DNA of 64,000 nucleotides from a bacterium (GCA_963693055.1 OY843751.1:2210248-2274247), one strand, 5' to 3'; positions 3,635 through 27,269 are shown, numbered from the stretch's first letter. Notes: generated from the letters alone by a model not told the origin. Numbers and translations are program-made.

Positions 3635-3642
3635 AATGTATT

Positions 3643-5115: not shown

Positions 5116-5149
5116 TTCATTCTCCCTATGAATTCAATAAATTTGCTAA

Positions 5150-6115: not shown

Positions 6116-6163
6116 GCTGTATTTCCTTTCTGAATTGTCGATGAGTTGTGATTTACGTAAAGT

Positions 6164-7678: not shown

Positions 7679-7725
7679 GGAAAATCTCCCTCAAATTTAT
7701 GAATGTTTAAATGATTGAAAAGGTA

Positions 7726-7753
7726 TTATTTGATAACTTCCCCAAATAATCCC
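7726..7753 (-). promoter_or_regulatory. conserved leader inverted repeat
   Basis: TTATTTG-N10-CAAATAA; whole intergenic region about 95 % identical to 1855-1976. Confidence 0.5.
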
Positions 7754-7817
7754 ACATATAAAACGTACGAAAAAAAGGTTTTTTAATCAAGAAATGATAA
7801 TAGGAATTATAAGAAGA

Positions 7818-7845
7818 AAGGGGTAAATCATTATTTACCCCTTTT
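7818..7845 (-). terminator. rho-independent terminator of gene 7858..9206
   Basis: AAAGGGGTAAATcattATTTACCCCTTTT. Confidence 0.6.
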
Positions 7846-7857
7846 ACAGGAAGAAAA

Positions 7858-9206: not shown

Positions 9207-10912
9207 AGAGATTCCCTTCCAGTATTATTGAATTTAGTTGTTTTTTCGAGTTCATCAATTCTTGCTTCTAGTTTTTTATTATATTTATCCTGATTAATAA
9301 TATACAGGGTCAATTCTTCAATCTTTTGCAAAAGTTTGGTTTGCATTTCACTCACCTGCACACCGTTTTCCTGCATTTCCTGTGAGGAAGGTATTTCCGG
9401 CAGGTGTTTGTTTTGTTGTATAAATTGTTCAACATGCTGAAGAGAGGGAAGGGCATAATCCTTTTCGAAAACAAAATCCGCGCCACCAGCATCGGCCTTG
9501 ATGGTAATATCCTGAGCACTGATCTTGCCGGCAACAGTGAGTTTGGAACCTGATTCAGGATTGCTGCAGCCGAGAATCACTGAACCATCATAGAGTATCC
9601 TCATTCCTTCATTATTTGTACCAACTCCTAAAATTAATGAACCGTTTTCGGTTGACCTGCCTCTTAAAACAGTATCCCCTGCTTTGCTTCCATTAATGAA
9701 ATTATCATTACCAGTTGCTATTCCAAAGAAAGCCCTGTCAGAATCAATATTGTCAGTATTATTTGTGTTAAGCCGGATTTGAGGTGTGGTTGTTTTGGTT
9801 ATCAGAATTATTCCTTCATCCAAATGCATCTTTTGCAAAGGATTGGTAATACCGATCCCTAAATTCCCTCCAAACCTTTGTAGAATCAATGGTTTCACTC
9901 CAACTCCGTCGTGAGTAGCTTGTATAAATCCCTGATCATTTGTTATATCAAAGCCTATTTGCATTTCTTTAGCTGCGTTTGTTTGCCCTCCGATTATCAG
10001 TTGCGGATTGCTTGTTCCATTCCAATCGCCACGAATTGTCAGAACAGCATTTGACGATCCTGTTGCCTGAACTGTTCCTCCCAATACTACATCACCATTT
10101 ACATTTAATTTTGTGGTAGGAGAGGGCGTACCAATACCCAGATTCCCATTTTCATCCAGTACCATTCTGTTTATTTCAGCGTCAACATCTCTGAAAATCA
10201 GTTTGCCTGCTCCTGATGTAGCAACGTTTGCGGTACTACCAATCATATATGACTTACCGTTGGAATTGGGTTCCGCATTTAAATAAATCCCAGGTCCATA
10301 CCCATTACCTGCCCTGGTTACTTTTATATTTCCATCAACATTCAATCGTTCAGTTAAAGTTGTGGTGCCTATTCCAACATTACCCGTTATATTGGTGTCC
10401 CAGTTTAGATCTATTCCATAATCATCAATGATAATTGCATCATTATAATACCAATTATTTCCTGTTCCAAGTTTATCATAATATCTTCTTGTGCCTATAT
10501 ACATTCTGCCTGTTGCATTGCTATTATTGGTATTTGCTGGAGTAACCAGGATTCGCCCTTGTCCCCATTGTCCTGAACCGTCGGTTGATGAAGGTGCTGT
10601 AAACTCTAACATTGAACCTGATTCTGTAGTTCTTGAAGTATTATTGGCATGTATGATAAAAGCATTATTCTGATCTGTAACAGTGTTTATTGTAGTTGCT
10701 GATGTAAAAACGAACCGGGCACGTCCGCCGGAAAAGTCAAGTTTGTAAGTTGGAGTGATTCCAATACCTACATTAGTTGTCAAAGTAGTTGTACTGCTGC
10801 CGGATGTTTCCCAATCATCATTTGTTGTGTCTTGTGCAGCAAGGTTATAAAAGAAGCAACTAATAAAAAACAGGATATTGATTAATCCAAATAGCCATTG
10901 ATTCGTTTTCAT
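9203..10912 (-). CDS. tail-fibre-like secreted protein, paralog family member
   Basis: ORF to 10984 in track; GGAGGAAAGG RBS and SP MKTNQWLFGLINILFFISCFFYNLAAQDTTNDDWETS favour start 10912; conserved C-terminal module. Confidence 0.75.
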   Translation of the reverse strand: MKTNQWLFGLINILFFISCFFYNLAAQDTTNDDWETSGSSTTTLTTNVGIGITPTYKLDFSGGRARFVFTSATTINTVTDQNNAFIIHANNTSRTTESGSMLEFTAPSSTDGSGQWGQGRILVTPANTNNSNATGRMYIGTRRYYDKLGTGNNWYYNDAIIIDDYGIDLNWDTNITGNVGIGTTTLTERLNVDGNIKVTRAGNGYGPGIYLNAEPNSNGKSYMIGSTANVATSGAGKLIFRDVDAEINRMVLDENGNLGIGTPSPTTKLNVNGDVVLGGTVQATGSSNAVLTIRGDWNGTSNPQLIIGGQTNAAKEMQIGFDITNDQGFIQATHDGVGVKPLILQRFGGNLGIGITNPLQKMHLDEGIILITKTTTPQIRLNTNNTDNIDSDRAFFGIATGNDNFINGSKAGDTVLRGRSTENGSLILGVGTNNEGMRILYDGSVILGCSNPESGSKLTVAGKISAQDITIKADAGGADFVFEKDYALPSLQHVEQFIQQNKHLPEIPSSQEMQENGVQVSEMQTKLLQKIEELTLYIINQDKYNKKLEARIDELEKTTKFNNTGRESL

Positions 10913-10943
10913 CTTTCCTTTCCTCCAATGAGATAGAATTTGA

Positions 10944-12695
10944 TTAATTGTTTTGAATTGTTTTGATCCATTTTTTGATTTCACTGTTTTCTTTTTTTAT
11001 GGAATCATTTTCTTTTTTTAATTCAATGACGTATAATGTTAATTCTTCTATTTTTTGTAACAGATTTGCCTGGAACTCACCAATATCAATTCCCTTATTT
11101 GTTGCTTCATCTGCGGAAGGAATACCGGGCAGGTGTTTATTCTGGTGGATAAATGCTTCGGTTTCTTCTATAGACATGAGGTCATAATCATCTTTAAATA
11201 CATAATCAGGTAATGATTCCTGCTGTAACTGGATTTCCTGTGCTTTGATTTTATTGTTTACAACCAGTTCTTTATTTACAGTTACCTGGTTATCCGTATT
11301 TATTGACATTGATACATTATCAGATTCATCGAGAAAAATTATATTATTCCCTTTAATACCCACGGGAGTTGTCCAATCGTTACCGTTATATGCGTCCCAT
11401 AGCATCGTACTTAGTCCACTATTATAATATAATCGTCCTTTTAACAATCCATTACTATTTATACCAATCGAGCCATTAATATCCAGAGTATGGGTGGATT
11501 CCATATTGATACCCAATTTATTTATCTGTGTATAAGCATTTTCCAGATTTATATCAAAAATATTTACATAATTAGAACCACGGATAAATAAATGTTTTGA
11601 GGTTCCTGATTGCTCTTGAATATAAAAATTTCCATTTGCCACTGACATAGACCAATCCATATTTACATCATCTTCTGAAAACCATATAACCGGAGAAGCA
11701 CTTTTAATTTGAAATGAATAATCTGGAGATATTCCAATACCTATTTTGTTGGAAATAAATATATCTCCATCATTTTCCACTTTAATTCCTTCATCATCTC
11801 CATCACCTGATAAAAAATTGGAATTCAGTATGATTTTACCAGTAAGTAAATTCAGATCACCACCTGCATTAATATCAATTAACGGTGTTGAGAAATTTGT
11901 AAATCTAAAGAGAGGTCTGGCATTGACTGTAGTAAATGTTCCGTTTATGGGATCGCCACTGTGAAGTTGACCAATAAATGTTATTAGGGGAACATTTCCA
12001 ATGTCATATTCACTTGTAGTCATTCCCTGGAATATTAATGAATGCCTGGTACTGGATGGAGTTGTACCATAAAAAGCTGGTTCAAATATTCCGGTAGAAT
12101 ATGTAGAATTTTTAATTCCGAATTGATATCCGGTTGCATCACTTACTGTCGCTTTTATAATACTTTCACGGCTCGTTGATTCTGCTAAAGAAACAATATC
12201 AATGGTTGAATTAATATTTGTTGTATTAACGCCTAATTTTCCATTTTCATTAACCCTGAATAATTGTGAGTTTATGTCATTATTATGACTTATAATTAAT
12301 GCAGCATTTTCGTCATTTGTATCCGAATCCAGGTCGATAATGTAATTTCTTAAACCCGATGTCCAGGCATCCCTTGTATCTGTTAGTCGTGTACCGAATA
12401 TTGCATTATTGATTTTTATTTTGTCTAAACCATATGTAGTTCCAATTGTTAATTTTTCTGTTGGATTAATTCCGATTCCCAGTTTACTACTTGCGACTAC
12501 ATCGCCATCATTTTCAACAGTGATTCCTTCATTACCTCCATCATTGGACAGGTAATACCCATTGAGAGAAATGTTTTCGGTAAGCACTTCATCAATACTG
12601 TTACTTGAAGAATTCTCAACAGCAACCAAAAAATTTACCATTGAAAAAAAGAACAACAAAAACAGTTTACCTGTACACATTGTAAGGTTTTTCAT
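10944..12695 (-). CDS. tail-fibre-like secreted protein, divergent paralog
   Basis: SP MKNLTMCTGKLFLLFFFSMVNFLVAVENSSS at rc-ATG 12695 with AAGGTGGG RBS; divergent C-terminal module ...NKHLPGIPSADE..LLQKIEELTLYVIELKKEN. Confidence 0.75.
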   Translation of the reverse strand: MKNLTMCTGKLFLLFFFSMVNFLVAVENSSSNSIDEVLTENISLNGYYLSNDGGNEGITVENDGDVVASSKLGIGINPTEKLTIGTTYGLDKIKINNAIFGTRLTDTRDAWTSGLRNYIIDLDSDTNDENAALIISHNNDINSQLFRVNENGKLGVNTTNINSTIDIVSLAESTSRESIIKATVSDATGYQFGIKNSTYSTGIFEPAFYGTTPSSTRHSLIFQGMTTSEYDIGNVPLITFIGQLHSGDPINGTFTTVNARPLFRFTNFSTPLIDINAGGDLNLLTGKIILNSNFLSGDGDDEGIKVENDGDIFISNKIGIGISPDYSFQIKSASPVIWFSEDDVNMDWSMSVANGNFYIQEQSGTSKHLFIRGSNYVNIFDINLENAYTQINKLGINMESTHTLDINGSIGINSNGLLKGRLYYNSGLSTMLWDAYNGNDWTTPVGIKGNNIIFLDESDNVSMSINTDNQVTVNKELVVNNKIKAQEIQLQQESLPDYVFKDDYDLMSIEETEAFIHQNKHLPGIPSADEATNKGIDIGEFQANLLQKIEELTLYVIELKKENDSIKKENSEIKKWIKTIQNN

Positions 12696-12736
12696 AGACC
12701 CACCTTGATTTTTTGATATGATTAAATAATGAAAGT

Positions 12737-12765
12737 GTTTATTTGATTTGAATCCCCAAATAAAT
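12737..12765 (-). promoter_or_regulatory. conserved leader inverted repeat GTTTATTTG-N10-CAAATAAA
   Basis: read directly. Confidence 0.5.
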
Positions 12766-12826
12766 CCACAATTATTATACAAAAATGGACTCTATTATCC
12801 AATTACTAAATGACGATTTGCAAATA

Positions 12827-12859
12827 AAAAAGGGACAATTTATTAAAACTGTCCCTTTT
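12827..12859 (-). terminator. rho-independent terminator of gene 12889..14265
   Basis: AAAAGGGACAatttattaaaacTGTCCCTTTT. Confidence 0.6.
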
Positions 12860-12888
12860 AAAATCAGTAAATTATTGTGGATCAATAA

Positions 12889-14265
12889 TTATTTTGTTTT
12901 TAGTAAAATATTTTTTTCCAGTTTTTCAATTTTTTTATTCATCTCTATCATGTGCAACGTCAGTTCTTCAATCTTTTGTAAAAGTTTGATCTGCATTTCA
13001 CTCACCTGTACTCCGTTTTCCTGCATCTCTTTTGCAGAGGGGATTTCCGGCAGGTGCTTGTTTTCCAGAACATACTTTTCAACATGTGCAAGAGAAGGGA
13101 GGGCATAATCATTTTTGAAAACAAAATCCGCTCCGGCGTCCACTTTGATGGTAATATCCCGTGCGCTGATTTTGCCGGCAACTGTGAGTTTCGCATCAGC
13201 AACAGGAGATGTAGTTGATGTACCAATACAAACTTGTCCATTAGAATCGATTGAGATGCCTTCATCATCGCCATCACCTGAGATATAGTTGTTATTTGTA
13301 TTAATCGTTCCTTGTAGATTAATATTGCCAGCTGAGCCCGCAACCAACTTTAACATTCCTGGAGAAATTGCATGGTTTTCACCATAGCTTACAATATATG
13401 ACCCCCTGTTTGAACTGATCCCGCCTCCACCGGAAATAGCGACTGATTTTTCATCATTCCCTGTTGTTGTGTTTGTTCTTAAAGTTGTTGTTGATAGTCT
13501 TCCAATAAATGCACCGTTACATTCGATATTGCCTGAGAATGAAGCTATACCTGAATCTGATATTTGTAATCCTTCATCGTCACCATCATTTGAAATAAAA
13601 TTATTATTCATCTCAATATTTGTATTTGTAAACCTGAATGTTCCTTCATTTTCATCAAATCTTCCAACTTCAATGCCATTATTTACATGAAAAACAATAT
13701 CTGCTATATTCCCGGATGAAAAGCCCAAAGCACCTGATGAAGTCATTTTTACAGCAGAGCCTCCCCAACCATTGAAATTCAGTGAAGCTGAATTGTTTAA
13801 TTTAGAAAATTTAACATCCCCATCATTCCCTATTTGAATACCTTCATTATCCCCATCATTTGAAAGATAATTCGAATTTAATATTAAATTTCCATTATTA
13901 AGATGGATATTATCATTTTGATCAATTGATAATGAAATTCTTCCGGCAGTACTGTTAACTATTTGAAAGTAATCTAAACCTGTACCTGAACCGTTGACTC
14001 GCATTGTCCATTCTCTGGCGTCATTTTGTAAACGTAATGTTGCATTTTGGTTCAATGTTGTTGATTTAATTCTCAAGTCAGCCACAGATGTTTGAATGTC
14101 AAAATCATAATTAGGAGATAAACCAATACCCACATTGCCAGTTGTTGTTGTATTGCCATTTCCATCAGTTACCCAGTTATCATCTGATGCTTGTATAGTA
14201 CATGAATAAAAAATAGCAATAAAGATACTGATGAAAAATTTTTTTAACATGGATACAGATTTCAT
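12889..14265 (-). CDS. tail-fibre-like secreted protein, paralog family member
   Basis: 458 aa; SP; SDDNWVTDGNGNTTTTGNVGIG; GDGDDEGI repeats; conserved C-terminal module; GGGAGG RBS. Confidence 0.8.
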   Translation of the reverse strand: MKSVSMLKKFFISIFIAIFYSCTIQASDDNWVTDGNGNTTTTGNVGIGLSPNYDFDIQTSVADLRIKSTTLNQNATLRLQNDAREWTMRVNGSGTGLDYFQIVNSTAGRISLSIDQNDNIHLNNGNLILNSNYLSNDGDNEGIQIGNDGDVKFSKLNNSASLNFNGWGGSAVKMTSSGALGFSSGNIADIVFHVNNGIEVGRFDENEGTFRFTNTNIEMNNNFISNDGDDEGLQISDSGIASFSGNIECNGAFIGRLSTTTLRTNTTTGNDEKSVAISGGGGISSNRGSYIVSYGENHAISPGMLKLVAGSAGNINLQGTINTNNNYISGDGDDEGISIDSNGQVCIGTSTTSPVADAKLTVAGKISARDITIKVDAGADFVFKNDYALPSLAHVEKYVLENKHLPEIPSAKEMQENGVQVSEMQIKLLQKIEELTLHMIEMNKKIEKLEKNILLKTK

Positions 14266-14317
14266 GTTCGCCTCCCTAAATACATTAAAGAATTTGTGTA
14301 AATAGAATGATTAATGT

Positions 14318-14346
14318 GTTTATTTAATATACATCCCCAAATAAAT
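14318..14346 (-). promoter_or_regulatory. conserved leader inverted repeat
   Basis: GTTTATTTA-N11-CAAATAAA downstream of promoter 14356-14384. Confidence 0.5.
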
Positions 14347-14355
14347 CCTCGAAAG

Positions 14356-14384
14356 AATATAGATATATATTTTGAGTGAATCAA
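14356..14384 (-). promoter_or_regulatory. sigma70-like promoter for the unit 12889..14265
   Basis: minus strand TTGATT-17 nt-TATATT. Confidence 0.45.
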
Positions 14385-14400
14385 TGAATTGTTGAAAAGA

Positions 14401-14432
14401 AAAAGGGGAGACGTGGAATAATTTCTCCCCTT
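14401..14432 (-). terminator. rho-independent terminator of gene 14449..15444
   Basis: GGGGAGAcgtggaataatTTCTCCCC + TT. Confidence 0.55.
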
Positions 14433-14448
14433 AATAGTTAATAGGATT

Positions 14449-15444
14449 TTATTTTGCAGAAATCATTTCTTTTAAACGATGATTTTCTTTTTCAAGTGAA
14501 TCTACTTTTTTATTCACTTTTATCATGTGTATTGTCAGTTCTTCGATTTTTTGTAAAAGTTTGCTTTGCATTTCACTCACTTGCACACCGTTTTGCCGCA
14601 TTTCCTGTACTGAGGGGATTTCCGGCAAGTGCTTGTTTTTCTGTATAAACTGTTCAACGTATTCAAGTGAAGGGAGCGCGTAATCTTTTTCAAAAACAAA
14701 ATCCGCACCGGCGTCCACTTTGATGGTAATATCCCGTGCGCTGATTTTGCCGGCAACTGTGAGTTTCGCATCAGCATCAGGAGATGTAGTTGATGTTCCA
14801 ATACAAACTTGTCCATCAGAATTAATTGAAATGCCTTCATCGTCGCCATCATTTGATATATATTTTGTGTTAATCTTTAAATTTGCACCAAATGCAATAG
14901 CATCAGGTGTTGCTGAGTTTTGTTCAAACCAGAAAAAACTTTTTCTGTATGTGTAATCGTCATTCATTGCCTGAAAATACAGATTACCTAATGTTGTGTT
15001 AATTCTCCAATTCTTTTGGTTAGTTGCGACATCATTTTCTTCAAATAATAATTCTGGACTATCTCCATAGACATGTAATAATGATTGCGGATTGGTTGTA
15101 CCAATTCCAACTTGACCACTATTTTTTAGAAACAATGTGTTTTTTAAAATTCCATCTAGTTGTGTTCGAAATTGTAGATTCAAGTTTGTGGTTCCAGATT
15201 CATCTCGTGCTTGAATAAAGGCAGTTCCGGAAGTACCCTCACCATTATAAGAATACAAATAAATATGCCCTCTTCCGTAATAATCGCCATTTACATGTAA
15301 TGATTTTTTGGGATTTAATGTCCCTATCCCAACACTACCGTTTGTAGTCGTTTCAACTGTTGTTGAACCATTCCAGTAATCTTTACTCATAGATTTATTG
15401 CTAAATAAAAATAAAAATGCAAATATCATAATATGCTGTTTCAT
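14449..15444 (-). CDS. tail-fibre-like secreted protein, paralog family member
   Basis: 331 aa; SP; KDYWNGSTTVETTTNGSVGIGT; conserved C-terminal module; AAGGAG RBS. Confidence 0.8.
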   Translation of the reverse strand: MKQHIMIFAFLFLFSNKSMSKDYWNGSTTVETTTNGSVGIGTLNPKKSLHVNGDYYGRGHIYLYSYNGEGTSGTAFIQARDESGTTNLNLQFRTQLDGILKNTLFLKNSGQVGIGTTNPQSLLHVYGDSPELLFEENDVATNQKNWRINTTLGNLYFQAMNDDYTYRKSFFWFEQNSATPDAIAFGANLKINTKYISNDGDDEGISINSDGQVCIGTSTTSPDADAKLTVAGKISARDITIKVDAGADFVFEKDYALPSLEYVEQFIQKNKHLPEIPSVQEMRQNGVQVSEMQSKLLQKIEELTIHMIKVNKKVDSLEKENHRLKEMISAK

Positions 15445-15965: not shown

Positions 15966-16495
15966 AATAACGAAATATACAAAAATAGGATAAGTAAATC
16001 AATGTAGTAAGTTGGAATGATATTAAAAGGAAAACAGAATTTTATTGCCTTTAAATTCTGGGGGTGGTGCTATACATGAATATAAACTATAGGGTATAGG
16101 TTCCGAATGTACCTATGAAGGAATGAACCGATGTCTTCAATCAATAGTATCCAACTTGAGGTGTATTCTGCTAGCTAAAGGCTGTCATGCACTCCGCTAA
16201 GGGAGTTTTTCCTCTATCACTTTCCAATTTTAAATTGGATGAATTGTTAAAAGTACTTAAACGTCGAATTCACCAGTTTGTATAATACCCATACGTATAT
16301 GCTGATTTAGAACAAATCAATACAAGTTGGTAATTGGTATATTTCAATTCGTCCAAAAAAGAGGGCCCTAATGGAGAAACAGGCTAGAATCCCTACCTAA
16401 CAAAGTATAGAGGAGACTGTCGTATCGTAGGTGCGCACGATGCAATGAGAGGAGATGAGGCAGATAAATATCCTCCCTCATCTCTATCTCGATTA

Positions 16496-16798
16496 TTATA
16501 TCTCAAGAAGTGGGTTCTTCATCATATCCGATACATTAGAAAAGTCTGATAATTCCGGATGAGTATAAATATCCGTAGTTGAAATGGATGAATGTCCCAG
16601 AATCTCTTTGATCAAAATTGGATTTTTTGTAAGACGCATGGCGTTTGTTGCAAAACTGTGTCTAAACCATTTAGGAGAATAACGGGAGTCCAATCCACTT
16701 AGCTCTAAATATTTCTTGAATATTTTTGAGGGTCTTGAACGTTCATGTAATTTGTCATAATTAATTTGAGGAAAGACCCGTTCAGAAGTTTTGGGCAA
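16496..16798 (-). pseudogene. tyrosine recombinase/integrase, C-terminal catalytic fragment only
   Basis: ...WFRHSFATNAMRL...ILGHSSISTTDIYTH motifs (R-H-R-Y box II); only ~100 aa; N-terminal two-thirds missing; IS3 element immediately upstream. Confidence 0.6.
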
Positions 16799-16929
16799 GG
16801 ATTGGGGCGCTCCCCATTGTTTAGACAGTTTTAGGTATTATTTAAGGTGTGGAACATCTTTGGTGATAACTTCAGGAGCCCGTAGGGCGACTGGAGTTAT
16901 CACCAAAATAGCTAATTAATTTTCCACGT

Positions 16930-17760
16930 TCAAGTCATTTTTAAATAAATTTGTGCAGGTGTTTGGTATTCCAAACCCTGATGACGCCTTTCGTTGTTAA
17001 AAAAATCAAAGTACCATTCCAAACCCGAATAAAGGTCGAGTCCTGTTTCAGGCGCATTAATATAAACATATTCGTACTTGACGCAACGCCACAACCGCTC
17101 GATAAAAATGTTGTCAAATGCCCGACCCCGGCCATCCATGCTTATCTGGATTTTTTGAGTGTCAAGAACAGCAAGAAAATCTTTGCATGTAAACTGGACG
17201 CCTTGATCGGTGTTAAAAATTGTCGGATCACCATGCTTCTCGAGAGCGCATGTTAGTGCCTCAATGCAAAAAACGGCATCCAAACTGTTCGAGATTCGCC
17301 AGGCCAGAACATATCGGCTAAACCAGTCGATCACCGCAACTAAATACAAAAAACCGCTCGGCATCGGTATATAGGTTATATCTGTACTCCAGACTTGATT
17401 AGGTGCCGTAACTTTATAATCTTTCAGCAGATACGGGTATATTTTATGAACAGCACCATCGTTTTTGAACCGGGGCTTTGGGTAGATTGCCTCAAGCCCC
17501 ATTAAGCGATATAACCGTCTGATTCTTTTCACGTTAACCTTATATCCACGGCCAAGAATATACTGATGCATGCGCCTGGCACCGTAGAATGGTGTTTTCA
17601 TAAACTGAACATCCATAAGGCGCATCAGTTCGAGATTGAGCGCACTTTCCGGTTGTGGCTGATAATAATAACCGGACCGACTGATCCCTAAAAGCTCACA
17701 TTGTCGTCCAATAACGATGTGTTTATATGACGGATCAATCAGCGCACGTTTTTGATGGTG
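16930..17760 (-). CDS. IS3-family transposase OrfB (DDE integrase core), expressed by -1 frameshift from orfA
   Basis: open in -1 frame from 17760 (LTEHHQKRALIDPSYKHIVIGRQCELLGISRSGYYY...); rve-type motifs ...WSTDITYIP..., ...FNTDQGVQFT... Confidence 0.75.
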   Translation of the reverse strand, partial: HHQKRALIDPSYKHIVIGRQCELLGISRSGYYYQPQPESALNLELMRLMDVQFMKTPFYGARRMHQYILGRGYKVNVKRIRRLYRLMGLEAIYPKPRFKNDGAVHKIYPYLLKDYKVTAPNQVWSTDITYIPMPSGFLYLVAVIDWFSRYVLAWRISNSLDAVFCIEALTCALEKHGDPTIFNTDQGVQFTCKDFLAVLDTQKIQISMDGRGRAFDNIFIERLWRCVKYEYVYINAPETGLDLYSGLEWYFDFFNNERRHQGLEYQTPAQIYLKMT

Positions 17761-17761
17761 T

Positions 17762-18046
17762 TCAGTTAAGACACTTTTTTTTTAACCAGTCCAGCTCTAC
17801 TTTGAGTTGACCTATTTGTTTATACAGTTCTGCTTCCAGGTTTTCTTGTTCTTTTTCCTTGCGATCTCTTTTGTTGGAAAAAACGTTCTCAGCCTCAATC
17901 AATAACTGTTTTTTCCAAAGACTAATCTGATTGACGTGAACGCCATATTGGCTGGACAGTTCACTCATTGTTTTTTGTTCTTTGAGTGCCTCCAATGCAA
18001 CTTTTGATTTGAACTTTGCACTGTATCGTTTCCGTTTTGCTTGCAT
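17762..18046 (-). CDS. IS3-family transposase OrfA (HTH)
   Basis: MQAKRKRYSAKFKSKVALEALKEQ...; ends at A9 slippery run. Confidence 0.75.
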   Translation of the reverse strand: MQAKRKRYSAKFKSKVALEALKEQKTMSELSSQYGVHVNQISLWKKQLLIEAENVFSNKRDRKEKEQENLEAELYKQIGQLKVELDWLKKKCLN

Positions 18047-18106
18047 GGCTCCTCCTTTATTGGATAATAAGGTAATAATTCCACACCTTATTTCACTGTC
18101 CTAAAT

Positions 18107-18964
18107 TTGGGGAGCATTATAAGTAATGAGTTTAGTAATTTGTTTTGGTTAGATGATAATTCAATAGTTTATACACGATCAACCGGTAAGAATTGGGATC
18201 ATACACCTTTCACATTAAATCCGACTGATATATACTTGCTTGATCTTGAAAGCAAAATGGAACAACAGATCACACATATGGGAAATGTTGATGAAATTGT
18301 CAATTGCTATGAGAATAATACTATACTCTTCAAAACTCTCGGAAAACACACAGAGACATCTGTTGTTGATCAGCGAGTCAATGATATCTATTCCGTCAAT
18401 AAGGAATGCTCTTTACTTAATATTAACGATTTATCGATTAACGAAATAATTTTACCAGATGGACAAATTTCCCCTGGATTTGAAATGATACTTCAACAGG
18501 ATAATAAGAATATGAAAATAGTTGATCTTGAGTCAATGATGCTTTTGGACAAAATCACTATTCCTGTAACTTGTGAAGATCAATCAATTAAATGGCTTAC
18601 AGAGAATCTTATATTTATTGGTTGCCAGGATGAAAGTTTGTCCCCAATAATATATATATATGATTTGTCTACTCGTACATTGCAAGAAGATACGCTTTTG
18701 ACTGAAGAAAAAAATATTTTTAATAGTTTTTTTCAAATTGCACCGAATAAAAAATGGTACAGTGCATCAAAATTAATTAACAGAAATTATATACTTTACT
18801 ATCAATACGTTGATCACCAAAATATTTATTTAATTTCCAATGATAGTATGTATGGGATATGGTCACCAAATTCTAAAAATATCGCATATATTGAAAAACG
18901 AGTTGATAGTAATAGTAACATAATGGAACTTTTAAAAGTTGAAGAAATACCTTTCAATCTTTAG
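18107..18964 (+). CDS. hypothetical beta-propeller-like protein; possible orphan RHS immunity gene truncated at 5' end by the IS3
   Basis: starts immediately at IS boundary; followed by the same terminator + cassette junction repeat that follows the two bona fide immunity genes. Confidence 0.35.
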   Translation: MGSIISNEFSNLFWLDDNSIVYTRSTGKNWDHTPFTLNPTDIYLLDLESKMEQQITHMGNVDEIVNCYENNTILFKTLGKHTETSVVDQRVNDIYSVNKECSLLNINDLSINEIILPDGQISPGFEMILQQDNKNMKIVDLESMMLLDKITIPVTCEDQSIKWLTENLIFIGCQDESLSPIIYIYDLSTRTLQEDTLLTEEKNIFNSFFQIAPNKKWYSASKLINRNYILYYQYVDHQNIYLISNDSMYGIWSPNSKNIAYIEKRVDSNSNIMELLKVEEIPFNL

Positions 18965-19083
18965 TAATTGTATAATACCAAGAAGCCTTTGCCACTGTCA
19001 CTGGAAAAGAATTGTTTTGTACAATTATATATAGGAATTATTAAATCCAAACTAGTATATTTGGCACAAGTTTACAATTTCAA

Positions 19084-19125
19084 GCGCCGGCACACTGCTA
19101 ACTATACAGTGTTCGGCGCTTTTTT
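19084..19125 (+). terminator. rho-independent terminator
   Basis: GCGCCGgcacactgctaactatacagtgttCGGCGC + TTTTTTG; paralogous copies at 21184-21230 and 23578-23628. Confidence 0.55.
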
Positions 19126-19700
19126 GTCTGAATTATGATTCATAGGATTATAGGATTACAGGATTGAATGGACGTTGTAATTCTAATCATGGGGAGATTG
19201 TCTTCGTCACAACTTTGATTATATCTCTTAACTCTCATTTTGAATACTTTGGGTGATTTGCAGTTTCGCTCTATTTTATCAAGAGGTCCGCCTGCTAATG
19301 AAGATAAATGATGTGTCAAGTCGGGTCCTGCCGGGTCCGTCTGCGCCGGTCAAAAGAAATGAATTTCGTTCTACATGTAATCCCCTGAATAATCTCAGAG
19401 GCTTCTTGCGGGGCTGGTCCTGAGCTTTCAAATCCCGGAGGAAAAGTGCCGCGAGTTGAGGGAGCGTGATCCGTTACTTACGGGATGGGGACTGAATCAG
19501 ATTTGCAGTACACGACGCTTGAGCAACTCTGACATGACCCGCGATTATACCCCATTTGGTGAAACCCTGGTCGCTTCAGGGAACAACGATAATAATTACC
19601 AGTACTCGCAAAAAGAGCTTGATTCGGATATCGGACTTTATTATACTCCATAGGCGCACCTCCGCGTTGCTGCGGTTTTGGAGCAAGATACTATAATCCC
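19126..19700 (+). repeat. RHS-cassette junction repeat copy 1 (AGGATTA direct repeats, then rhs core 3' fragment ...NNYQYSQKELDSDIGLYYTP)
   Basis: ~90 % identical to 23629-23938; 3' part identical to 21395-21490. Confidence 0.6.
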
Positions 19701-19718
19701 GGCATTGGACGCTGGTTT

Positions 19719-20252
19719 GTGCCCGACCCCGCCGGACAGGGATTCAGCCCGTATGTGTATTGCGGTAATAATCCGTTGATTATGGTGGACCCGGATGGGG
19801 AATTTTGGCAATTTGTTTTTGGTGCAGCTATTAATGTCTTTACTCATTGGGATGAGGTTAAACATGGCAATTTTTGGGATTTTTTAGGATTTGCCTCTGT
19901 AGGTGCTTTAGGCACAGGTTTGAGTATGATTGGCAATCCATCAGCATGGTATGGATTTCAAAATATTATTACTGGTGCAGGACAGGGTGCATTAATAGGA
20001 GGATTAAATTCATCTTTAAGCGGTAATAAGTTTTCTCAAGGTTTAAAGGGAGGAAGTATTTCTGGTGCTGCATTTGGCTTAATATCAACTGAACAGTTTC
20101 AAAATACCTTACGTGGAAATCTTTGGAAATCTGATCAACAGGTATTTGAGCAATTTGCAAGTTCAGAGGATTTTCAAGGAGCTATTGATTATTTCGGAGG
20201 AGAAGGTGTTTATGATCCAAATAATCAAGTATTTCAAGATCATCCAAATTGA
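19719..20252 (+). CDS. orphan RHS C-terminal toxin cassette 1 (frame opens 19623, no ATG; GARYYNPGIGRWFVPDP...MVDPDGE motif); terminated by in-frame TGA
   Basis: RHS core-end signature followed by Gly-rich hydrophobic segment. Confidence 0.6.
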   Translation: MPDPAGQGFSPYVYCGNNPLIMVDPDGEFWQFVFGAAINVFTHWDEVKHGNFWDFLGFASVGALGTGLSMIGNPSAWYGFQNIITGAGQGALIGGLNSSLSGNKFSQGLKGGSISGAAFGLISTEQFQNTLRGNLWKSDQQVFEQFASSEDFQGAIDYFGGEGVYDPNNQVFQDHPN

Positions 20253-20585
20253 GAAGCAGCGACTACTGATAATCCAAATGTCCGAACAATTTATAGTGAT
20301 AATTCATTTGCTGATGTAAATACATTAAAAACTAATATTTTTCACGAAAGTATTCATCGAAATCAGTTTTTATCTCATGATTTTTCTACTGAAGGTGTTA
20401 ATAATATGACACAATTAGAGAGATTCGATTTTACTGCCGCAATAGAAACACCAGCTTGGATAGCTTCTTATAGAAATCAAGGTTTAAATGGGAAGTCCAT
20501 TTCTTCTTGGAATATTTCACATTTTATAGGTGAAGAATATCAAAAATGGTGGCATTTTATCTATAAAATGCCACGAAGGTATTAA
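20253..20585 (+). other. in-frame continuation of toxin 1 past TGA (HExxH metallopeptidase-like motif NIFHESIHRNQ)
   Basis: same frame open for 110 more codons to TAA 20583-20585; next gene opens 9 nt later exactly as in cassette 2. Confidence 0.5.
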
Positions 20586-20606
20586 TACTTTTATATGAGG
20601 ATCATA

Positions 20607-21113
20607 ATGAAAAGTAGATTATTGATTTATTTTATTTTGCTATTATCAACTACTAATATAAGATGTGGTAGTAATCGTCAAAATTCTCAGTTATATGTAA
20701 ATCCAATGTTGATTATGTCCATTGAAACAAATAATAGTCATTATATAAAAAATGATAGTTTATTTTTACATACTTGGATTGAAAATAAAACCAATAAGGA
20801 ATTAACATTTTTTTTTAATGAAATTTTATTCGAGTTATTTATAAGTAAAAATGACTCGATAATCGATTTTTACAATATTGATGCAGAACAGCATGGTTTT
20901 GGTAAAATGTATGATAATATTTATAAAATAAAACCAAATGATAAATTGAATTTAATGTTTCGAATTGACAATGTTATTCCAAAAAGTTTTACTGGGAGAT
21001 ATAATCTAATGTTATTATATAGATCCCAAATATCAAAAAGATATAATAAAGATGTATGGACCGGAAATTTATTATCAAATGAAATTGAGCTGTTTATTGA
21101 GGAGAAAGAATAA
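20607..21113 (+). CDS. putative secreted immunity protein for RHS toxin 1
   Basis: GAGGA RBS; SP MKSRLLIYFILLLSTTNIRCGS (ORF-track start 20595); position directly after toxin. Confidence 0.55.
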   Translation: MKSRLLIYFILLLSTTNIRCGSNRQNSQLYVNPMLIMSIETNNSHYIKNDSLFLHTWIENKTNKELTFFFNEILFELFISKNDSIIDFYNIDAEQHGFGKMYDNIYKIKPNDKLNLMFRIDNVIPKSFTGRYNLMLLYRSQISKRYNKDVWTGNLLSNEIELFIEEKE

Positions 21114-21183
21114 TAACGAAACGATATTTGTCGATTATACTGAATAGTCCGTTGCCCGCACCAATTGGTGCGGGTTTTTACTT

Positions 21184-21500
21184 TAAGCGCCGGCACACTG
21201 CTAACAATACAGTGACCGGAGCTTTTTTTGTCTGAATTATGATTCGTAGGATTAAAGGATTGAGTTGACGTTGTAAAACAGATCATAGGGTAGATTGTCT
21301 CTGTCACGGTTGAATTATACCTCTTTGCGCTCATTGCGAATGTTCTGAGAGCTTTGCGGTTTCTGACCTCCGGGCGGTCTTTACCCACCGGTTCTCGCCA
21401 AAAGAGCTTGACTCGGGTATTGGACTTTGTTATACTCCATAGGCGCACCTCCGCGTTGCTGCGGTTTTGGAGCAAGATACTATAATCCCGGTATTGGGCG
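21184..21500 (+). repeat. RHS-cassette junction repeat copy 2 (terminator + 5' conserved part + rhs 3' homology; middle deleted)
   Basis: alignment to copies 1 and 3. Confidence 0.55.
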
Positions 21501-22419
21501 CTGGTTTGTGCCAGACCCCGCCGGACAGGGATTCAGCCCGTATGTGTATTGCGGTAATAATCCGCTGATTATGGTTGATCCGGATGGAGAGTGGGCTTTT
21601 TTGATGCCAATTATAACAAGCGGCTTAATTCGAGCTTTTTCTGGCAATCCGTCTAATTTTGGCAAGAATTTTGGTATTGGAGCGGCGTTTGGAGCTCTGG
21701 GCGTATTATCAGCTGGCGGCATTAGTGCTTTTACCTCAACATCATTTTTACAAGGAGCAGGTACAGCAATGACTGTGCTTGGTGCGGAAACCGGATCAGG
21801 ATTATTATGGGATATGGCAAGAAATAATACGGGGTTTGGTAATATTATTGATAATCAGATGGGTTCAGTAATTGGCACCGCATTTAATTTTATTGGTCCT
21901 ACTATACTGGAAAGTGAGTTGTTTTTACGTTTTACAAAGCCACCTGACCATATTCAAACGTTTGCTGCTGAAACGCAGAAAGAAGAAGAAATTATACAAG
22001 AGTTATTGGTTCCCCAAAAAGGTGAAAGCTCCTTTGAATTTAAAAAGGGTCAAATCGGCAGGTATGCACATGAGGGAAATATGGCAAATGGCTCCTATTT
22101 TATAGTAAATACGAATGATATGAATGTTTCTATTGTACGATTTGGGAAAGGAAATCTTCATGGCGCAGTTGCTGCACGAAAAGGTTTATTTATGGCGTCA
22201 GAACGCCCTCCGTGGCAATATATCTCGCGGGATGTTTGCCTTCAACAAGGTGCAAGGTCAATAAGAAAAGCAGTCGGCGGTGCTTTCTTAGCAAACCAGT
22301 TGTTCGGGAATTCGGTGTTTACACGATTATCATCAGCCGTTTTTAGCGGTGGATATGGGCCTGCTGCAGGGCTTCAGTGGATGGGAACACAATATTATAA
22401 TTATCAAGAAAAATATTAG
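21427..22419 (+). CDS. orphan RHS C-terminal toxin cassette 2 (frame opens 21412, no ATG; ...GARYYNPGIGRWFVPDP..MVDPDGEW + novel CT)
   Basis: RHS end motif; Gly-rich hydrophobic region then unique C-terminus. Confidence 0.6.
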   Translation: MLYSIGAPPRCCGFGARYYNPGIGRWFVPDPAGQGFSPYVYCGNNPLIMVDPDGEWAFLMPIITSGLIRAFSGNPSNFGKNFGIGAAFGALGVLSAGGISAFTSTSFLQGAGTAMTVLGAETGSGLLWDMARNNTGFGNIIDNQMGSVIGTAFNFIGPTILESELFLRFTKPPDHIQTFAAETQKEEEIIQELLVPQKGESSFEFKKGQIGRYAHEGNMANGSYFIVNTNDMNVSIVRFGKGNLHGAVAARKGLFMASERPPWQYISRDVCLQQGARSIRKAVGGAFLANQLFGNSVFTRLSSAVFSGGYGPAAGLQWMGTQYYNYQEKY

Positions 22420-22428
22420 GGCAAATTA

Positions 22429-23481
22429 ATGAAAGCGAAAATGATTCTGTTTTTTATATTGTTTTCAAAGACCATAATGTCTGCTGAAACACCCTGGATG
22501 GTTTATATGGAACCCGCGGCAAATGACCAGAAAAGATTAGTAGTTTATGATATTGGTAACGATTCATTGGTAACAGATTTTTTTACACAATTATCAGGGT
22601 CTTTTCTGGTAATGAAGTTTTTTTCAAACACCGGACTCATTGGTTTTGCATCTGATAATCATTTATACAAGATTGATATTGAAAACAAAAAAATAGAAAA
22701 CCTTCCCGAATTAAATAGTTCGGCATTAAATTATGGGCAGGATATATGGATTATCTTATATGGTGATATTTTGAACGTGAATGTGCCAGGAAAATCGTTT
22801 TCAATGGATTTGAAAAGTATAATCAATCACAAATACCGTGAAATTGTCCGTTTTGAATGGGTATTGAAAAAAGAGGAAACAGTTTATATTGGCGTGTTGA
22901 CAATTGATGATAAAAATAAATATCACCGCGTATTGATCAAGAAAACCTTGAATGAAATAATATGCTGTAATATTGAAAACAAAACCGGATTATCGTTTTG
23001 GGATAGGAGCTGTATTGAAGAAAAGAGTAATCCTTTTAATGATTATGTTGGATTAATTTATGTTAATTCAAAAACATTTAAACGGGAATTGGTCTTTTTC
23101 GATTTGCGGAAAAATGAGCTCATTCATGCGGCGACAAATGTAGATGATTTTGTGTGGTTGAATGGTGATTCATTGGCGTTGTATTCGTATAATCGTGATG
23201 CAGGAGAATATCAGATTGATATGTTTGATTCTGTGACTAAAGAAAGGACTGAATTGTTTCAATATGATCATATTGGCCATAATCAAAATTTGTTTTACTT
23301 TGATAATTCTTTATATTTTAAACATTTTTCAAGACACATGGAAATTTTTACAAAAATTAAATTCAGAAAATATAATGTGTTAACAAATGATGTTACAGAT
23401 GTTCTTGAATTTAATAAAAGCCGAGATTCCTATTATAACATTTTTGATTGGGATATTAGAATTGTGAATCTTGAAGAGTAG
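22429..23481 (+). CDS. putative secreted immunity protein for RHS toxin 2
   Basis: 350 aa, SP MKAKMILFFILFSKTIMSAETPW; 9 nt after toxin stop. Confidence 0.55.
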   Translation: MKAKMILFFILFSKTIMSAETPWMVYMEPAANDQKRLVVYDIGNDSLVTDFFTQLSGSFLVMKFFSNTGLIGFASDNHLYKIDIENKKIENLPELNSSALNYGQDIWIILYGDILNVNVPGKSFSMDLKSIINHKYREIVRFEWVLKKEETVYIGVLTIDDKNKYHRVLIKKTLNEIICCNIENKTGLSFWDRSCIEEKSNPFNDYVGLIYVNSKTFKRELVFFDLRKNELIHAATNVDDFVWLNGDSLALYSYNRDAGEYQIDMFDSVTKERTELFQYDHIGHNQNLFYFDNSLYFKHFSRHMEIFTKIKFRKYNVLTNDVTDVLEFNKSRDSYYNIFDWDIRIVNLEE

Positions 23482-23577
23482 TTATTAACCTGGGCTTATA
23501 GCCCAGGTTTTTCTTATCCGGTATACATTCTGTTTTTACGAGTTTAGAATTACGAAATATACTAAACAATTTAGCAC

Positions 23578-23938
23578 CGTCTCACTGCAAACCATGCAGT
23601 GCCCGGCGTTTTTTTTGTCTGAATTATGATTTATAGGATAAAATATGACAGGATTGAATTGACGTTATGAAACTGTTCATGAGGGAGATTGTCTCCGTTA
23701 CAACTCTGATTATCCCTTTTAACTCTCATTTCGAATATACTCTGGGGGCTTTGCATTTTAATCCTATTTTATCATGAGGTCCGCCTGCGAATAAAGATAC
23801 ATGATGCGTCAAGTCGTGTCCTGCCTGCCGGGTCCGTCTGTACCGGGCAAGCGAAATAAATTTTGTTCTACATATAATCCCCTGAATAATCTCAGAGGCT
23901 TCTTGCGGGGCCGGTCCCGAAGTGAATTCAGAATGACC
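23578..23938 (+). repeat. RHS-cassette junction repeat copy 3, truncated before the GARYY region
   Basis: homology breaks at ~23938. Confidence 0.55.
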
Positions 23939-24135
23939 TCTAAATCATATCCCTTGAAACCAAAAAATCCCCAGAAAAATTCTGAGGCTTTTTGTGTTCT
24001 TACTTGAATATGTTATTCATGCCGCCTCGTGCTGCCTTATAAAGGCCCCTTGAGCGTACGTCCTAAACGCTGCATGCGCAAGTTTAAACAAGAAGTTTGA
24101 TATAGTTGCTCAAAATCCAACGTTTTTGAGACACT

Positions 24136-24168
24136 TTAAAAGCCTGAATTTTCAGGCTTTTTTTTATG
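24136..24168 (+). terminator. rho-independent terminator hairpin (AGCCTGAAttTTCAGGCT + T8) nested inside a 10-bp inverted repeat TTTGAGACAC/GTGTCTCAAA
   Basis: read directly. Confidence 0.5.
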
Positions 24169-24379
24169 CCTGATTGTGTCTCAAAAGTCGTCTCATATTC
24201 TAATTCTTAATTCCTCAACATTATACCCTTTTTGAGACTTTCCCAAAATCATCATATGATGAAATTAATCTATTTTTTTCATTTTTTTTCAAAAAAAATA
24301 CCAAAAAATTGAACTCTCCTTGTATTTATAAATGAGAGCCAATAGGACTCATAAATTTTTATTAAAATTAGGAGGTAAC

Positions 24380-25222
24380 ATGAAAGAAATGTTACTACCT
24401 GATGTAGTTAATCAAAACTTGCAGAGCATAGCTGATGCAAGACAAACCCCCTTACTCTCAATCATGTGCGGAAAGTCCGGCATCAATTGGCGTACGGTAG
24501 ATTCGATGTATAACAGTTTACATGGCATCGAACTAGCGAAACTTGATCTTTTAATCCAGGCAAATGACTCGGATTACGATGTAATTTCGCAGACACTTGA
24601 AATTCTGAAGAAATCAGTGGATGAATTACATGTAATTATACCAGCACCTCTTGTGAGATTGTCTGGCTTAATCGCATTATCATCAAGCTCTATTACCCTC
24701 GGAACATTTGGGTCAATTACTCCAATTACACCTGGCTATGATCCAAACACTCCTGAGAATAGTGAAAAAGCGATATCTCACTTTTCTGTAAATGGTTTCA
24801 ATGTTGTGAACAAATTGCAATTTGACGCCATCGAAACGTTACAGTGTAGAATCATCGATGCCAGCGGTGATAATGTATCTGTAAAGGATGCCTGGGACAT
24901 CGCAGCCAGTTTTGTATCTGAAACCAGCTATGAGAACATTGATGAGAAAACCGCTAATAACTATGATTCTGTTAACGCGACCATCGATGCTGTAAAAAGA
25001 GCACTGGACATAGGGAACTGTGTATCAGGGGAGAATGATGAAATCGCAAAGAAACTGGTCACCGGGTTTTCGAATCCGAACCAATTCATCAGATTCGATG
25101 AGTTAAAGGCGATGGGTTTTAATGTGAATCGTGCTGATGAAGATCTTGATTTCACTTTATACGAGTTATCAGCACAACCGGACTCTACAAAGTGGGCTGA
25201 TTTATTTAAATGGGTAATTTAA
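24380..25222 (+). CDS. hypothetical protein (no signal peptide, no recognisable domain)
   Basis: AGGAGG RBS 6 nt upstream of ATG 24380 (ORF-track start 24332). Confidence 0.6.
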   Translation: MKEMLLPDVVNQNLQSIADARQTPLLSIMCGKSGINWRTVDSMYNSLHGIELAKLDLLIQANDSDYDVISQTLEILKKSVDELHVIIPAPLVRLSGLIALSSSSITLGTFGSITPITPGYDPNTPENSEKAISHFSVNGFNVVNKLQFDAIETLQCRIIDASGDNVSVKDAWDIAASFVSETSYENIDEKTANNYDSVNATIDAVKRALDIGNCVSGENDEIAKKLVTGFSNPNQFIRFDELKAMGFNVNRADEDLDFTLYELSAQPDSTKWADLFKWVI

Positions 25223-25622: not shown

Positions 25623-26285
25623 ATGCTAATGACAAAAATACAAATTTTGCTAATTGAAGACAATGACCTTCTTCGGGAAGGCATTGCAGCTATGCTCAAT
25701 GATCATCATGAATTCAATGTCATTGCACGATCTGAAGATGGTAATATTCTGCAACAACTCAACAAGCTGGGGGAATTACCCAATATCGTCCTTTTAGACC
25801 TGGGATTGGAAAAAGTAAACAGTTTAATGTTGATGAAGCAACTTTTTGAAGAATTACCAACGGTCAAAATCATTGCCATGGACATCCTTCCCGATCACGT
25901 CGATATTGTCGAATTTGTTAAAGCCGGTGGCTCCGGTTTTATTCTTAAAAACGCCCCTTCGCAAGATTGGATCGAAACAATCAAATCCGTTGCTGTGGGC
26001 GCCAAAGTACTGCCCCCGGGTTTGACCCAATCACTGTTTACACAAATCATCGAAATGGCCCTCAAAAACAAAGATGGCATACCTGCCGACTCGGTCCGCT
26101 TTACGAACCGGGAACGTGAAGTTATCAACCTGATTACTGCAGGTCTGAGCAACAAAGAAATCGCGGAATCACTTCACATCTCCACTTATACCGTCAAGAG
26201 CCATGTGCACAATGTCCTGGAAAAGCTGGAACTCAGTAGCCGACTTCAGATTGCGGCACATATCCGCAATGAAGGCCAAATATAA
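25623..26285 (+). CDS. response regulator, NarL/FixJ (LuxR-type HTH) family
   Basis: REC domain (LLIEDND...D..L) + C-terminal LTNREREVINLITAGLSNKEIAESLHISTYTVKSHVHNVLEKL. Confidence 0.85.
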   Translation: MLMTKIQILLIEDNDLLREGIAAMLNDHHEFNVIARSEDGNILQQLNKLGELPNIVLLDLGLEKVNSLMLMKQLFEELPTVKIIAMDILPDHVDIVEFVKAGGSGFILKNAPSQDWIETIKSVAVGAKVLPPGLTQSLFTQIIEMALKNKDGIPADSVRFTNREREVINLITAGLSNKEIAESLHISTYTVKSHVHNVLEKLELSSRLQIAAHIRNEGQI

Positions 26286-26555: not shown

Positions 26556-27269
26556 GTGCAATTGAGTATTCATTATTATGTCTTGTCATTGAGTGATCAA
26601 TTAAGCATTCTTTATGAAGCTTTTCGGGACAAACTTATTTCGATCCAAAACTCAAATTTCCCGTTTGAATCTTTTATTCACGCAGATCATTCTGATAATC
26701 AGGCATTTAGAAACTCCCAATTGAAAGAATTTTTCCGCCAGACAGACCAGCATTTTATTCATTATTATGATCAGGACCCGCTTTACCTTGTAGTTGTAGG
26801 CGAAAAAAACAACCTGTCCATTTTTGAAACCCTGATAACCCATCGGGACGCATTAATCGGACACATTGAAGGTAATTATATTATAACCTCTCCTCATGAT
26901 TTGGGAAAAATTGTCTGGCCAGTTATTAAAGAAGCCATATCCGGCTCAAATAATAATGCTTTACGTGAACTGACAAAGGCGGCAGAAGCGAGTAATGTCG
27001 TCTCCGGAATTGATGCAGTAGGGCAATCCGCTGAAACTGAAACAGGCCCCATGTTATATGTTGAAGAAGATTATCATGTAAAGGGTAGTCTTCGAAAAGT
27101 AGATCAAACAACAATTGTACGTTCAAAACATGTGGAATTATGGGATGTTATCGATGACGTGGTGGATATCATCATCGAAAAAGTACTTGAAATGGGTGGC
27201 ACTGTAATCTTTATGAAAAATGACTCATTGAAAAATCATGAGAGAATCGCTTTGGTCCCAAGTAGTTGA
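26556..27269 (+). CDS. hypothetical protein (GTG start)
   Basis: AAGAGG RBS then GTG; 237 aa. Confidence 0.5.
   Translation: MQLSIHYYVLSLSDQLSILYEAFRDKLISIQNSNFPFESFIHADHSDNQAFRNSQLKEFFRQTDQHFIHYYDQDPLYLVVVGEKNNLSIFETLITHRDALIGHIEGNYIITSPHDLGKIVWPVIKEAISGSNNNALRELTKAAEASNVVSGIDAVGQSAETETGPMLYVEEDYHVKGSLRKVDQTTIVRSKHVELWDVIDDVVDIIIEKVLEMGGTVIFMKNDSLKNHERIALVPSS

Follow-up and report, generated by a model that had tools for sequence, protein, structure and literature searches.

Bacteria are known to use orphan Rhs tips for storing and exchanging toxins and for maintaining immunity to their neighbours, and homologous recombination is, to our knowledge, the sole mechanism of exchange shown for them so far. 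The locus analyzed in this work, at positions 19084-23949 of a 64,000-nucleotide stretch of bacterial DNA (GCA_963693055.1, OY843751.1:2210248-2274247; hereafter the window, meaning this whole stretch), contains two tandem same-strand units of the same layout: a piece of the Rhs core end, a Gly-rich hydrophobic stretch, a unique C-terminal region, and an immunity candidate. Among the described systems, the closest are the orphan rhs-CT/rhsI modules of Enterobacteriaceae (Jackson et al. 2009, PMC2935791; Koskiniemi et al. 2014, PMC3967940), which retain part of the core, have no initiation signals, and are reactivated when they recombine with the main gene (PMC3967940; PMC2935791). The present locus shares with these orphans a core-end fragment, a variable tip and an immunity gene, the absence of translation initiation signals, the tandem order, and a shared homology block before each tip. 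It differs from them in its lack of a main rhs upstream, in a core fragment reduced to a very short piece (~14-70 codons), in a frame-breaking insert that splits the core-end domain, and in a conserved non-coding trailer after each immunity gene. In addition, the host is of low G+C content and carries cargo genes of the type IX secretion system (T9SS) type, and the closest Rhs ends in the genome collection come from candidate division KSB1.

Tip arrays were also found in metagenome-assembled genomes (MAGs) of the Fibrobacteres-Chlorobi-Bacteroidetes (FCB) group and related lineages. L053 (Ignavibacteria) and L037 (Calditrichales) contain 5-6 tips in tandem, with a block repeated on the 5' side, and such arrays are evidently common in other phyla; in L132, an orphan comes after a main Rhs, which is the classical arrangement. 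These loci resemble the array in the window by their period of 1.3-2.4 kb, by the repeated 5' block before each tip, and by a core end of the type ...PDPAGQG.SPY...DP.GE. Their block is a 500-600-nucleotide in-frame core with all junctions contiguous, whereas the block in the window is 204 nucleotides long, interrupted, and preceded by a non-coding repeat. The third system for comparison is the recombinase-associated acquired interbacterial defence (rAID-1) clusters of Bacteroidales (Ross et al., 10.1101/471110), which likewise show an adjoining Xer-family recombinase gene, repetitive intergenic sequences, and immunity genes of skewed G+C content. In the window, however, the recombinase is truncated and located on the other strand, behind an insertion sequence, the units are toxin plus immunity with an Rhs core end and not mainly lone immunity genes, and the host, judged by its nearest matches, is not a member of Bacteroidales.

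The locus is likely, in our view, to represent displaced Rhs C-terminal "tips" (orphan rhs-CT/rhsI modules) in a beheaded array that has decayed, and it extends the orphan-tip picture to a poorly studied low-G+C lineage. A unit of this array would comprise a short core-end piece, a toxin region, a predicted exported immunity protein, and a conserved trailer. A sequence-only reading of the window had proposed orphan Rhs C-terminal toxin-immunity modules at this place, and the analysis supports that assignment; the Gly-rich hydrophobic segment and unique C-terminal region that it described are indeed present in both cassettes. The features of the array are as follows.

19084-19431, plus strand: junction repeat copy 1 (J1), composed of a hairpin at 19084-19119 with a T-run, the head TGTCTGAATTATGATTCATAGGATTATAGGATTACAGGATT, and a lineage-specific interior
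19432-19644, plus strand: Rhs core-end fragment 1, the N-half of TIGR03696 (...STRRLSNSDMTRDYTPFGETLVASGNNDNNYQYSQKELDSDIGLYY), in frame a, decayed in its upstream part and lacking a start codon
19645-19676, plus strand: first copy of the 32-nucleotide insert, ACTCCATAGGCGCACCTCCGCGTTGCTGCGGT, 66% G+C
19677-19802, plus strand: core-end C-half of cassette 1 (FGARYYNPGIGRWFVPDPAGQGFSPYVYCGNNPLIMVDPDGE), in frame c
19803-20585, plus strand: toxin region 1, a Gly-rich hydrophobic segment and then a unique domain
20595-21113, plus strand: candidate immunity gene 1 (imm1), with its own terminator at 21154-21175
21183-21386, plus strand: junction repeat copy 2 (J2), partial, with hairpin, head, and ~100 nucleotides of the interior
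21387-21433, plus strand: core-end N-half remnant of cassette 2 (SPKELDSGIGLCY), with 40 of 47 nucleotides the same as in cassette 1
21434-21465, plus strand: second copy of the insert, identical to the first at 32 of 32 nucleotides
21466-22419, plus strand: core-end C-half (21466-21591) and toxin region 2, an intact frame of 317 codons
22429-23481, plus strand: candidate immunity gene 2 (imm2), with a terminator at 23487-23509
23570-23949, plus strand: junction repeat copy 3 (J3), followed by no cassette; right end of the array

The Rhs origin of the two units follows from their core ends. Both core-end motifs given in the sequence-only reading, ...YQYSQKELDSDIGLYY and GARYYNPGIGRWFVPDP...MVDPDGE, are present, but the two halves lie in different frames with the 32-nucleotide insert between them. 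With the insert removed, cassette 1 matches positions 1-75 of 76 of the Rhs_assc_core family TIGR03696 (NCBIfam, E 3.5e-23); the spliced cassette 2 matches the same family with E 6.1e-18, and its C-half alone with E 1.9e-12. In the DNA as it stands, the TIGR03696 domain is split over two frames. The DPxG-type motif NPLIMVDPDGE is found in both cassettes, its last residue being E and not the usual L, and directly after it the nucleotide identity of the cassettes falls to 16 of 60.

In both cassettes, the insert splits the core-end domain between GLYY and FGARYY, introduces a TAG in frame a, and displaces what follows into a different frame. Frame c opens, as had been reported, at 19623 and 21412 after TGA codons, and the absence of start codons from both toxin frames was confirmed as well, no start codon being in a useful position ahead of either. 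The cassettes cannot be called complete, as they had been, since the GLYY and FGARYY halves are out of frame and parted by an insert that is identical in the two; moreover, the frame of toxin 1 is interrupted by a TGA (20250-20252) ahead of the HESIH motif at 20343-20357. TGA is an ordinary stop here, because it terminates 10 of the 38 long open reading frames (ORFs) of the window. In its present form, the DNA therefore cannot yield either toxin as an Rhs protein: there is no start codon and no core, the insert breaks the frame, and toxin 1 carries a nonsense codon besides. The insert is found at a further place in the source genome, where the protein P0032, from another copy of leader plus core fragment, ends in ...GLYYTP*; this ending places the insert at three sites at least.

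The immunity candidates begin 9 nucleotides past the toxin stops, at 20595 and 22429, and have signal-like N-termini, all as previously described. Imm1 is a protein of 172 amino acids with an N-terminal signal-like sequence and Cys24, encoded at 22.7% G+C; imm2 has 350 amino acids and a predicted signal peptide and is encoded at 30% G+C. The low G+C content of these genes and their 9-nucleotide distance from the toxin stops support the proposed array. Because both immunity genes are intact, the locus now probably serves as an orphan immunity gene pair that would still protect against neighbours armed with these toxins.

No match to the toxins or the immunity candidates was obtained in Pfam, NCBIfam, or PDB sequence searches, nor was toxin 1 matched by BLASTP to any of the retrieved Rhs tips that bear HExxH. 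AlphaFold2 models of the toxin-2 domain and the C-terminal part of toxin 1 (predicted local distance difference test, pLDDT, 31 and 40, respectively) were too poor for a fold search. The toxin-2 ORF is present in the protein database as P0001, and its sole relative is P0002 (48% amino-acid identity) from the sister genome L001, in which the housekeeping-type proteins of the P0002 contig cluster with proteins of the window at >=90% identity. The gene after P0002 encodes a protein of 342 amino acids that aligns with imm2 over the full length (36% identity, E 8e-72), and toxin 2 and immunity 2 thus recur in L001 as a pair. A HMMER search with the toxin-2 C-terminal domain (21901-22416) retrieved 2 representatives only, P0001 and P0002, among 1.84 billion cluster representatives, and by such sequence comparison the domain appears so far to be confined to this lineage. 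In total, the locus adds two toxin domains that have no detectable relatives, the one of toxin 2 being known from these 2 representatives only.

Arrays of this kind would grow when a new tip with core homology recombines into an rhs gene and displaces the old tip downstream. The shared block that would serve such recombination here comprises 204 nucleotides: 19598-19801 recurs at 21387-21590 with 93% identity, and the identity collapses on both sides. By segment, 40 of 47 nucleotides are identical on the N-half side, 32 of 32 in the insert, and 118 of 125 downstream. The insert together with the next 24 nucleotides forms a tract identical between the cassettes (19645-19700 and 21434-21489), while 7 mismatches in 47 positions and 7 in 125 are found in its flanks; this tract may reflect recent gene conversion or constraint, the numbers being too small to tell the two apart.

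The same block could be the substrate of an active reservoir of silent cassettes, in which tips are kept for exchange with a main rhs elsewhere by homologous recombination or gene conversion. Its 93% identity would suit this purpose, the intact toxin 2 and immunity 2 have conserved counterparts in the sister genome, revival of orphans through recombination has been demonstrated experimentally in Salmonella (PMC3967940), and with P0032, leader plus core fragment are present at least once more elsewhere in the genome. We nevertheless regard such a reservoir as unlikely. The insert is located inside the homology block, so that an open frame would arise only from crossovers in the 125 nucleotides downstream of it; P0032 is broken in the same manner; toxin 1 has its nonsense codon; and reciprocal exchange with a distant locus would rearrange the chromosome. 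The partner is also missing from both the window and the protein searches detailed below, which were non-exhaustive. With the insert in both and the nonsense codon in toxin 1, the cassettes are not intact silent tips. For the decayed array, revival of a toxin would be limited to a crossover in these 125 nucleotides with an intact rhs elsewhere; given such a crossover and such a partner, a role as recombination reservoir is possible for toxin 2.

The statement that the window holds no full-length rhs core gene was borne out by family scans and tblastn alike. No Rhs core was found elsewhere in the 64 kb, the scanned ORFs being devoid of the RHS-repeat family. In the tblastn searches, the full-length Rhs of L132 matched only the two core ends, the L002 query matched nothing, and L053_791 matched only TonB-receptor genes. 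Three protein searches (the best 120 profile matches and two full lists; not exhaustive) returned no protein longer than 763 amino acids, and a scan of the genome collection yielded distant relatives only, at most 57% identical.

The left boundary of the array offers a possible explanation for the missing upstream part. The following features are located there.

16496-16798, minus strand: C-terminal half of an Xer-like tyrosine recombinase (PF00589 match), the N-terminal half missing; it abuts the end of IS3
16809-18115, minus strand: IS3-family insertion sequence (IS), the left array boundary, with orfA at 17762-18046 and orfB at 16930-17625
18116-18964, plus strand: orf18107, open to the IS3 end; candidate immunity gene of a beheaded "cassette 0", by its position only

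The insertion sequence was identified by NF033516 (transpos_IS3, E 4.6e-67) and by the Pfam families rve and HTH_21. Its terminal inverted repeats are at 16809-16829 and 18095-18115; the flanks differ (GGGC and ATTA), and no target-site duplication was seen on reading. Orf18107 encodes 285 amino acids from a TTG at 18107 at 29.7% G+C; no family or homologue was found for it, nor any similarity to immunity 2. It is a candidate for the immunity gene of a beheaded cassette, because J1 follows it as the other repeat copies follow imm1 and imm2. An IS3-mediated rearrangement probably severed the array from what lay upstream, possibly including a main rhs, and this upstream part would thereby have been lost or moved.

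The recombinase fragment matches positions 93-168 of the 172 positions of PF00589 (E 1.5e-12). In NCBIfam it is closest to XerA, XerC, and XerD, but with only ~80 amino acids left, all three matches fall far short of the cut-off. No intact tyrosine recombinase gene linked to the array was found, only this minus-strand C-terminal half abutting IS3, and the unlike flanks of IS3 together with the truncation weaken the case that the recombinase belongs to the array. The same two elements separate the array from the upstream "fibre array" with which it had been joined into one island. That island is not sustained: the upstream ORFs, ten in a row on the minus strand at 558-15444 (321-612 amino acids), have no Pfam family at E up to 0.001 except for two sub-threshold matches, Phage_T4_gp36 in 14449-15444 and TEP1_CUB2 in 12889-14265.

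The junction repeat is a composite of a terminator-like hairpin with a T-run, a ~40-nucleotide TGTCTGAATT/AGGATT head, and a lineage-specific interior. The head reads TGTCTGAATTWWGATTYRTAGGAT and is followed by AGGATT iterons; the interior has been found so far only in the source genome. Three copies of a ~350-bp repeat had been described. The number holds, a 21-nucleotide junction motif occurring exactly 3 times against 0.02 expected, and J1 and J3 are 82% identical over 358 nucleotides; the length does not hold for J2, which is partial (~190-200 nucleotides, 77% identical to J1 over 191 nucleotides). A separate terminator before the first cassette, also proposed, does not exist, and the terminator-like element is the hairpin inside the repeat itself. 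This hairpin folds with -15 to -22 kcal/mol (z -3 to -5) in the three window copies and in two L001 copies; for J1, the values are -22.4 kcal/mol and z -5.1. The junction repeat is better read as a trailer of the cassettes than as a leader, because a copy follows each of orf18107, imm1, and imm2. Decayed Rhs core was considered as another identity of the junction and rejected, since tblastn with 158 Rhs proteins and a full-length Rhs found only the paralogue P0032. Rfam gave no match at the gathering threshold in the whole window and only two chance-level matches at E up to 1 in 18900-24400, and a tRNA scan found none.

In its most prominent part, the junction repeat is not specific to Rhs. 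The six copies in 85 kb of the two related genomes all sit at cassette borders, but an exact degenerate search detected the head in 52 metagenome loci, none of which (0/52) has an Rhs end, and the AGGATTA-repeat part thus belongs to a widespread family of short repeats. In 11 of these 52 loci (L080-L131; e.g. L087:3081-3488 and L089:8580-8990) the head is beside genes of the PDDEXK_3 (GxxExxY) nuclease family, which suggests a small mobile or hitch-hiking unit. These data bring up the possibility that the junction repeat is nothing but a selfish short repeat with inverted ends, similar to miniature inverted-repeat transposable elements (MITEs), that was inserted after terminators or carried along and has no role in the cassettes. 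Besides the spread of the head over unrelated contexts, this would be in line with the form that the family takes in L001, a ~100-nucleotide palindrome with clear 19-nucleotide inverted ends, and with an inverted match to the J1 head (19127-19150) at 19378-19399, ~250 nucleotides downstream, a weak one that was reached by 19 of 1000 shuffles and whose two arms were also found paired separately. On the other hand, cassette borders are the only places where the repeat is found in the 64-kb window and the 21-kb L001 locus, J3 has only a weak inverted match, and no target-site duplication is evident. We hold this explanation, which concerns the junction repeat only, to be possible, though on balance doubtful. 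The same features place the repeat near the class of repetitive extragenic palindromes (REPs) and MITEs, with which it shares inverted ends in the short form of the head, internal AGGATT iterons, and presence on many unrelated contigs; here, in contrast, no transposase or REP-associated tyrosine transposase (RAYT) partner was identified, no target duplication was seen, and the two genomes have the repeat at cassette borders only. For the decayed array, the trailer would be a terminator-like hairpin combined with a copy of the short-repeat family that either spreads or is copied with the cassettes.

The insert has a counterpart in the sister genome. The core-end fragment of cassette 1 is 86.6% identical at the nucleotide level to L001:10011-10159, the 32-nucleotide insert is absent at the homologous junction L001:10150-10165, and P0002 is an orphan with an uninterrupted GLYYFGARYY. 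A second, unrelated orphan of L001 carries a different, 23-nucleotide insert, CCGCCAGGGGTCGGACCTGCAGC, at the same GLYY|FGARYY codon boundary; with this insert removed, TIGR03696 is matched at positions 1-75 of 76 (E 4.4e-22). Both inserts are of 3n+2 length, and the similarity between them is not significant (p ~0.15). No other copies of the inserts were detected in the window, L001, 79 loci, or viral contigs.

To survey the core-end junctions, N-half and C-half matches were paired at 128 of them, from ~80 loci of many phyla. Contiguous junctions numbered 123, two showed in-frame differences or alignment artefacts, and out-of-frame gaps were restricted to the window (two) and L001 (one). In L132 and L133, the closest available relatives of this core-end type, all junctions are contiguous, and the same is true for GLYY|FGARYY in all of the 158 retrieved proteins except for P0032. 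That chance should have placed two independent small insertions at one exact position is hard to accept. The possibility that the insert creates a sigma-70-like promoter (TTGATT-17-TATACT) was considered, but the motif was judged to belong to the coding sequence itself, since TTGATT-17-TATTTT is found at the uninterrupted junction of L001.

Several of these observations weigh against a decayed array of displaced tips. Ordinary decay does not explain unrelated 3n+2 inserts at the same codon boundary in two cassette families, with 123 other clearly paired junctions being contiguous, the two in-frame or artefactual cases aside. No main rhs was found in the window or among the source-genome proteins from the three database searches, and the L001 orphans likewise are not beside a main rhs. 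Finally, orf18107 was assigned as an immunity gene by position alone.

Two features alone, the recurrent 3n+2 insert and the cassette-bound trailer, might go beyond the known orphan-tip arrays. The G+C-rich inserts could have been left by a site-specific process dedicated to Rhs tips, for example as an exchange joint or a reversible off-switch, and this process might be linked to the Xer-like recombinase and the trailer; we judge this distinctly improbable. Should the recurrent insert prove to be programmed, it would point to a site-specific mechanism that silences or exchanges toxin tips.

Another alternative to the decayed array would be an integron-like or rAID-like array, in which an Xer-family recombinase moves trailer-bounded units and the inserts at GLYY|FGARYY are the joints of site-specific exchange. 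An Xer-like fragment does lie beside the array, the same hairpin and head come after immunity genes in two genomes with 6/6 copies in 85 kb adjacent to cassettes, two different inserts occupy one exact position, and immunity arrays with a recombinase and repetitive intergenic sequences have been described in Bacteroidales (10.1101/471110). The fragment, however, is a C-terminal half only, on the opposite strand and behind an IS3 with unlike flanks, so its adjacency may be secondary, and in L001 no gene of a recombinase family was called within 10 kb. Furthermore, the head is present in 52 metagenome loci without an Rhs end, often beside PDDEXK_3 genes, the two inserts are not detectably similar, and the hairpin shows no compensatory changes. 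We consider an array of this type very unlikely.

We give still less credence to programmed recoding, in which the ribosome would pass the 3n+2 insert by a -1 or +2 shift or by a hop, or the insert would be removed from the RNA, so that toxin output is regulated. One and the same frame change would repair both inserts, since both are 3n+2, and an ATG start precedes the core fragment of the interrupted L001 cassette. A hop from CCA-TAG to CCU or CCG codons 11-14 nucleotides downstream, to which the same very low credence applies jointly, could be imagined for the window insert, where the Pro codon before the TAG has Pro codons after it in the target frame. The L001 insert, by contrast, has no stop codon or matching take-off and landing codons, and a Pro-to-Pro hop is conceivable only in the window insert. 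No slippery heptamer was recognized by reading in either overlap, and RNA folding around the two inserts is no better than for shuffled sequences (z +0.8 and +1.6). The window cassettes have neither an upstream start codon nor a core, which leaves recoding nothing to act on.

Minor observations were made on the surroundings of the orphans in L001. Upstream of P0002, L001:9180-9980 contains three tandem copies of another G+C-rich hairpin repeat unit. A 76-nucleotide element of this field recurs at 16097-16172, before the second orphan, and its 3' part resembles, by reading, the 3' end of the junction repeat in the window. A gene of the Gmx_para_CXXCG family (L001:8473-9177) is directly upstream of the repeat field.

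In the window, a second rve-type transposase gene is found at 39282-40103 (plus strand). Downstream of a gene for a LuxR-type response regulator (25623-26285, plus strand), positions 26556-27269 (plus strand) encode a protein resembling bacterial archaeo-eukaryotic release factors (baeRF family 3, PF18845, E 3e-28), and a tandem pair of DUF1670 helix-turn-helix (HTH) proteins is encoded at 54711-56343 (plus strand).

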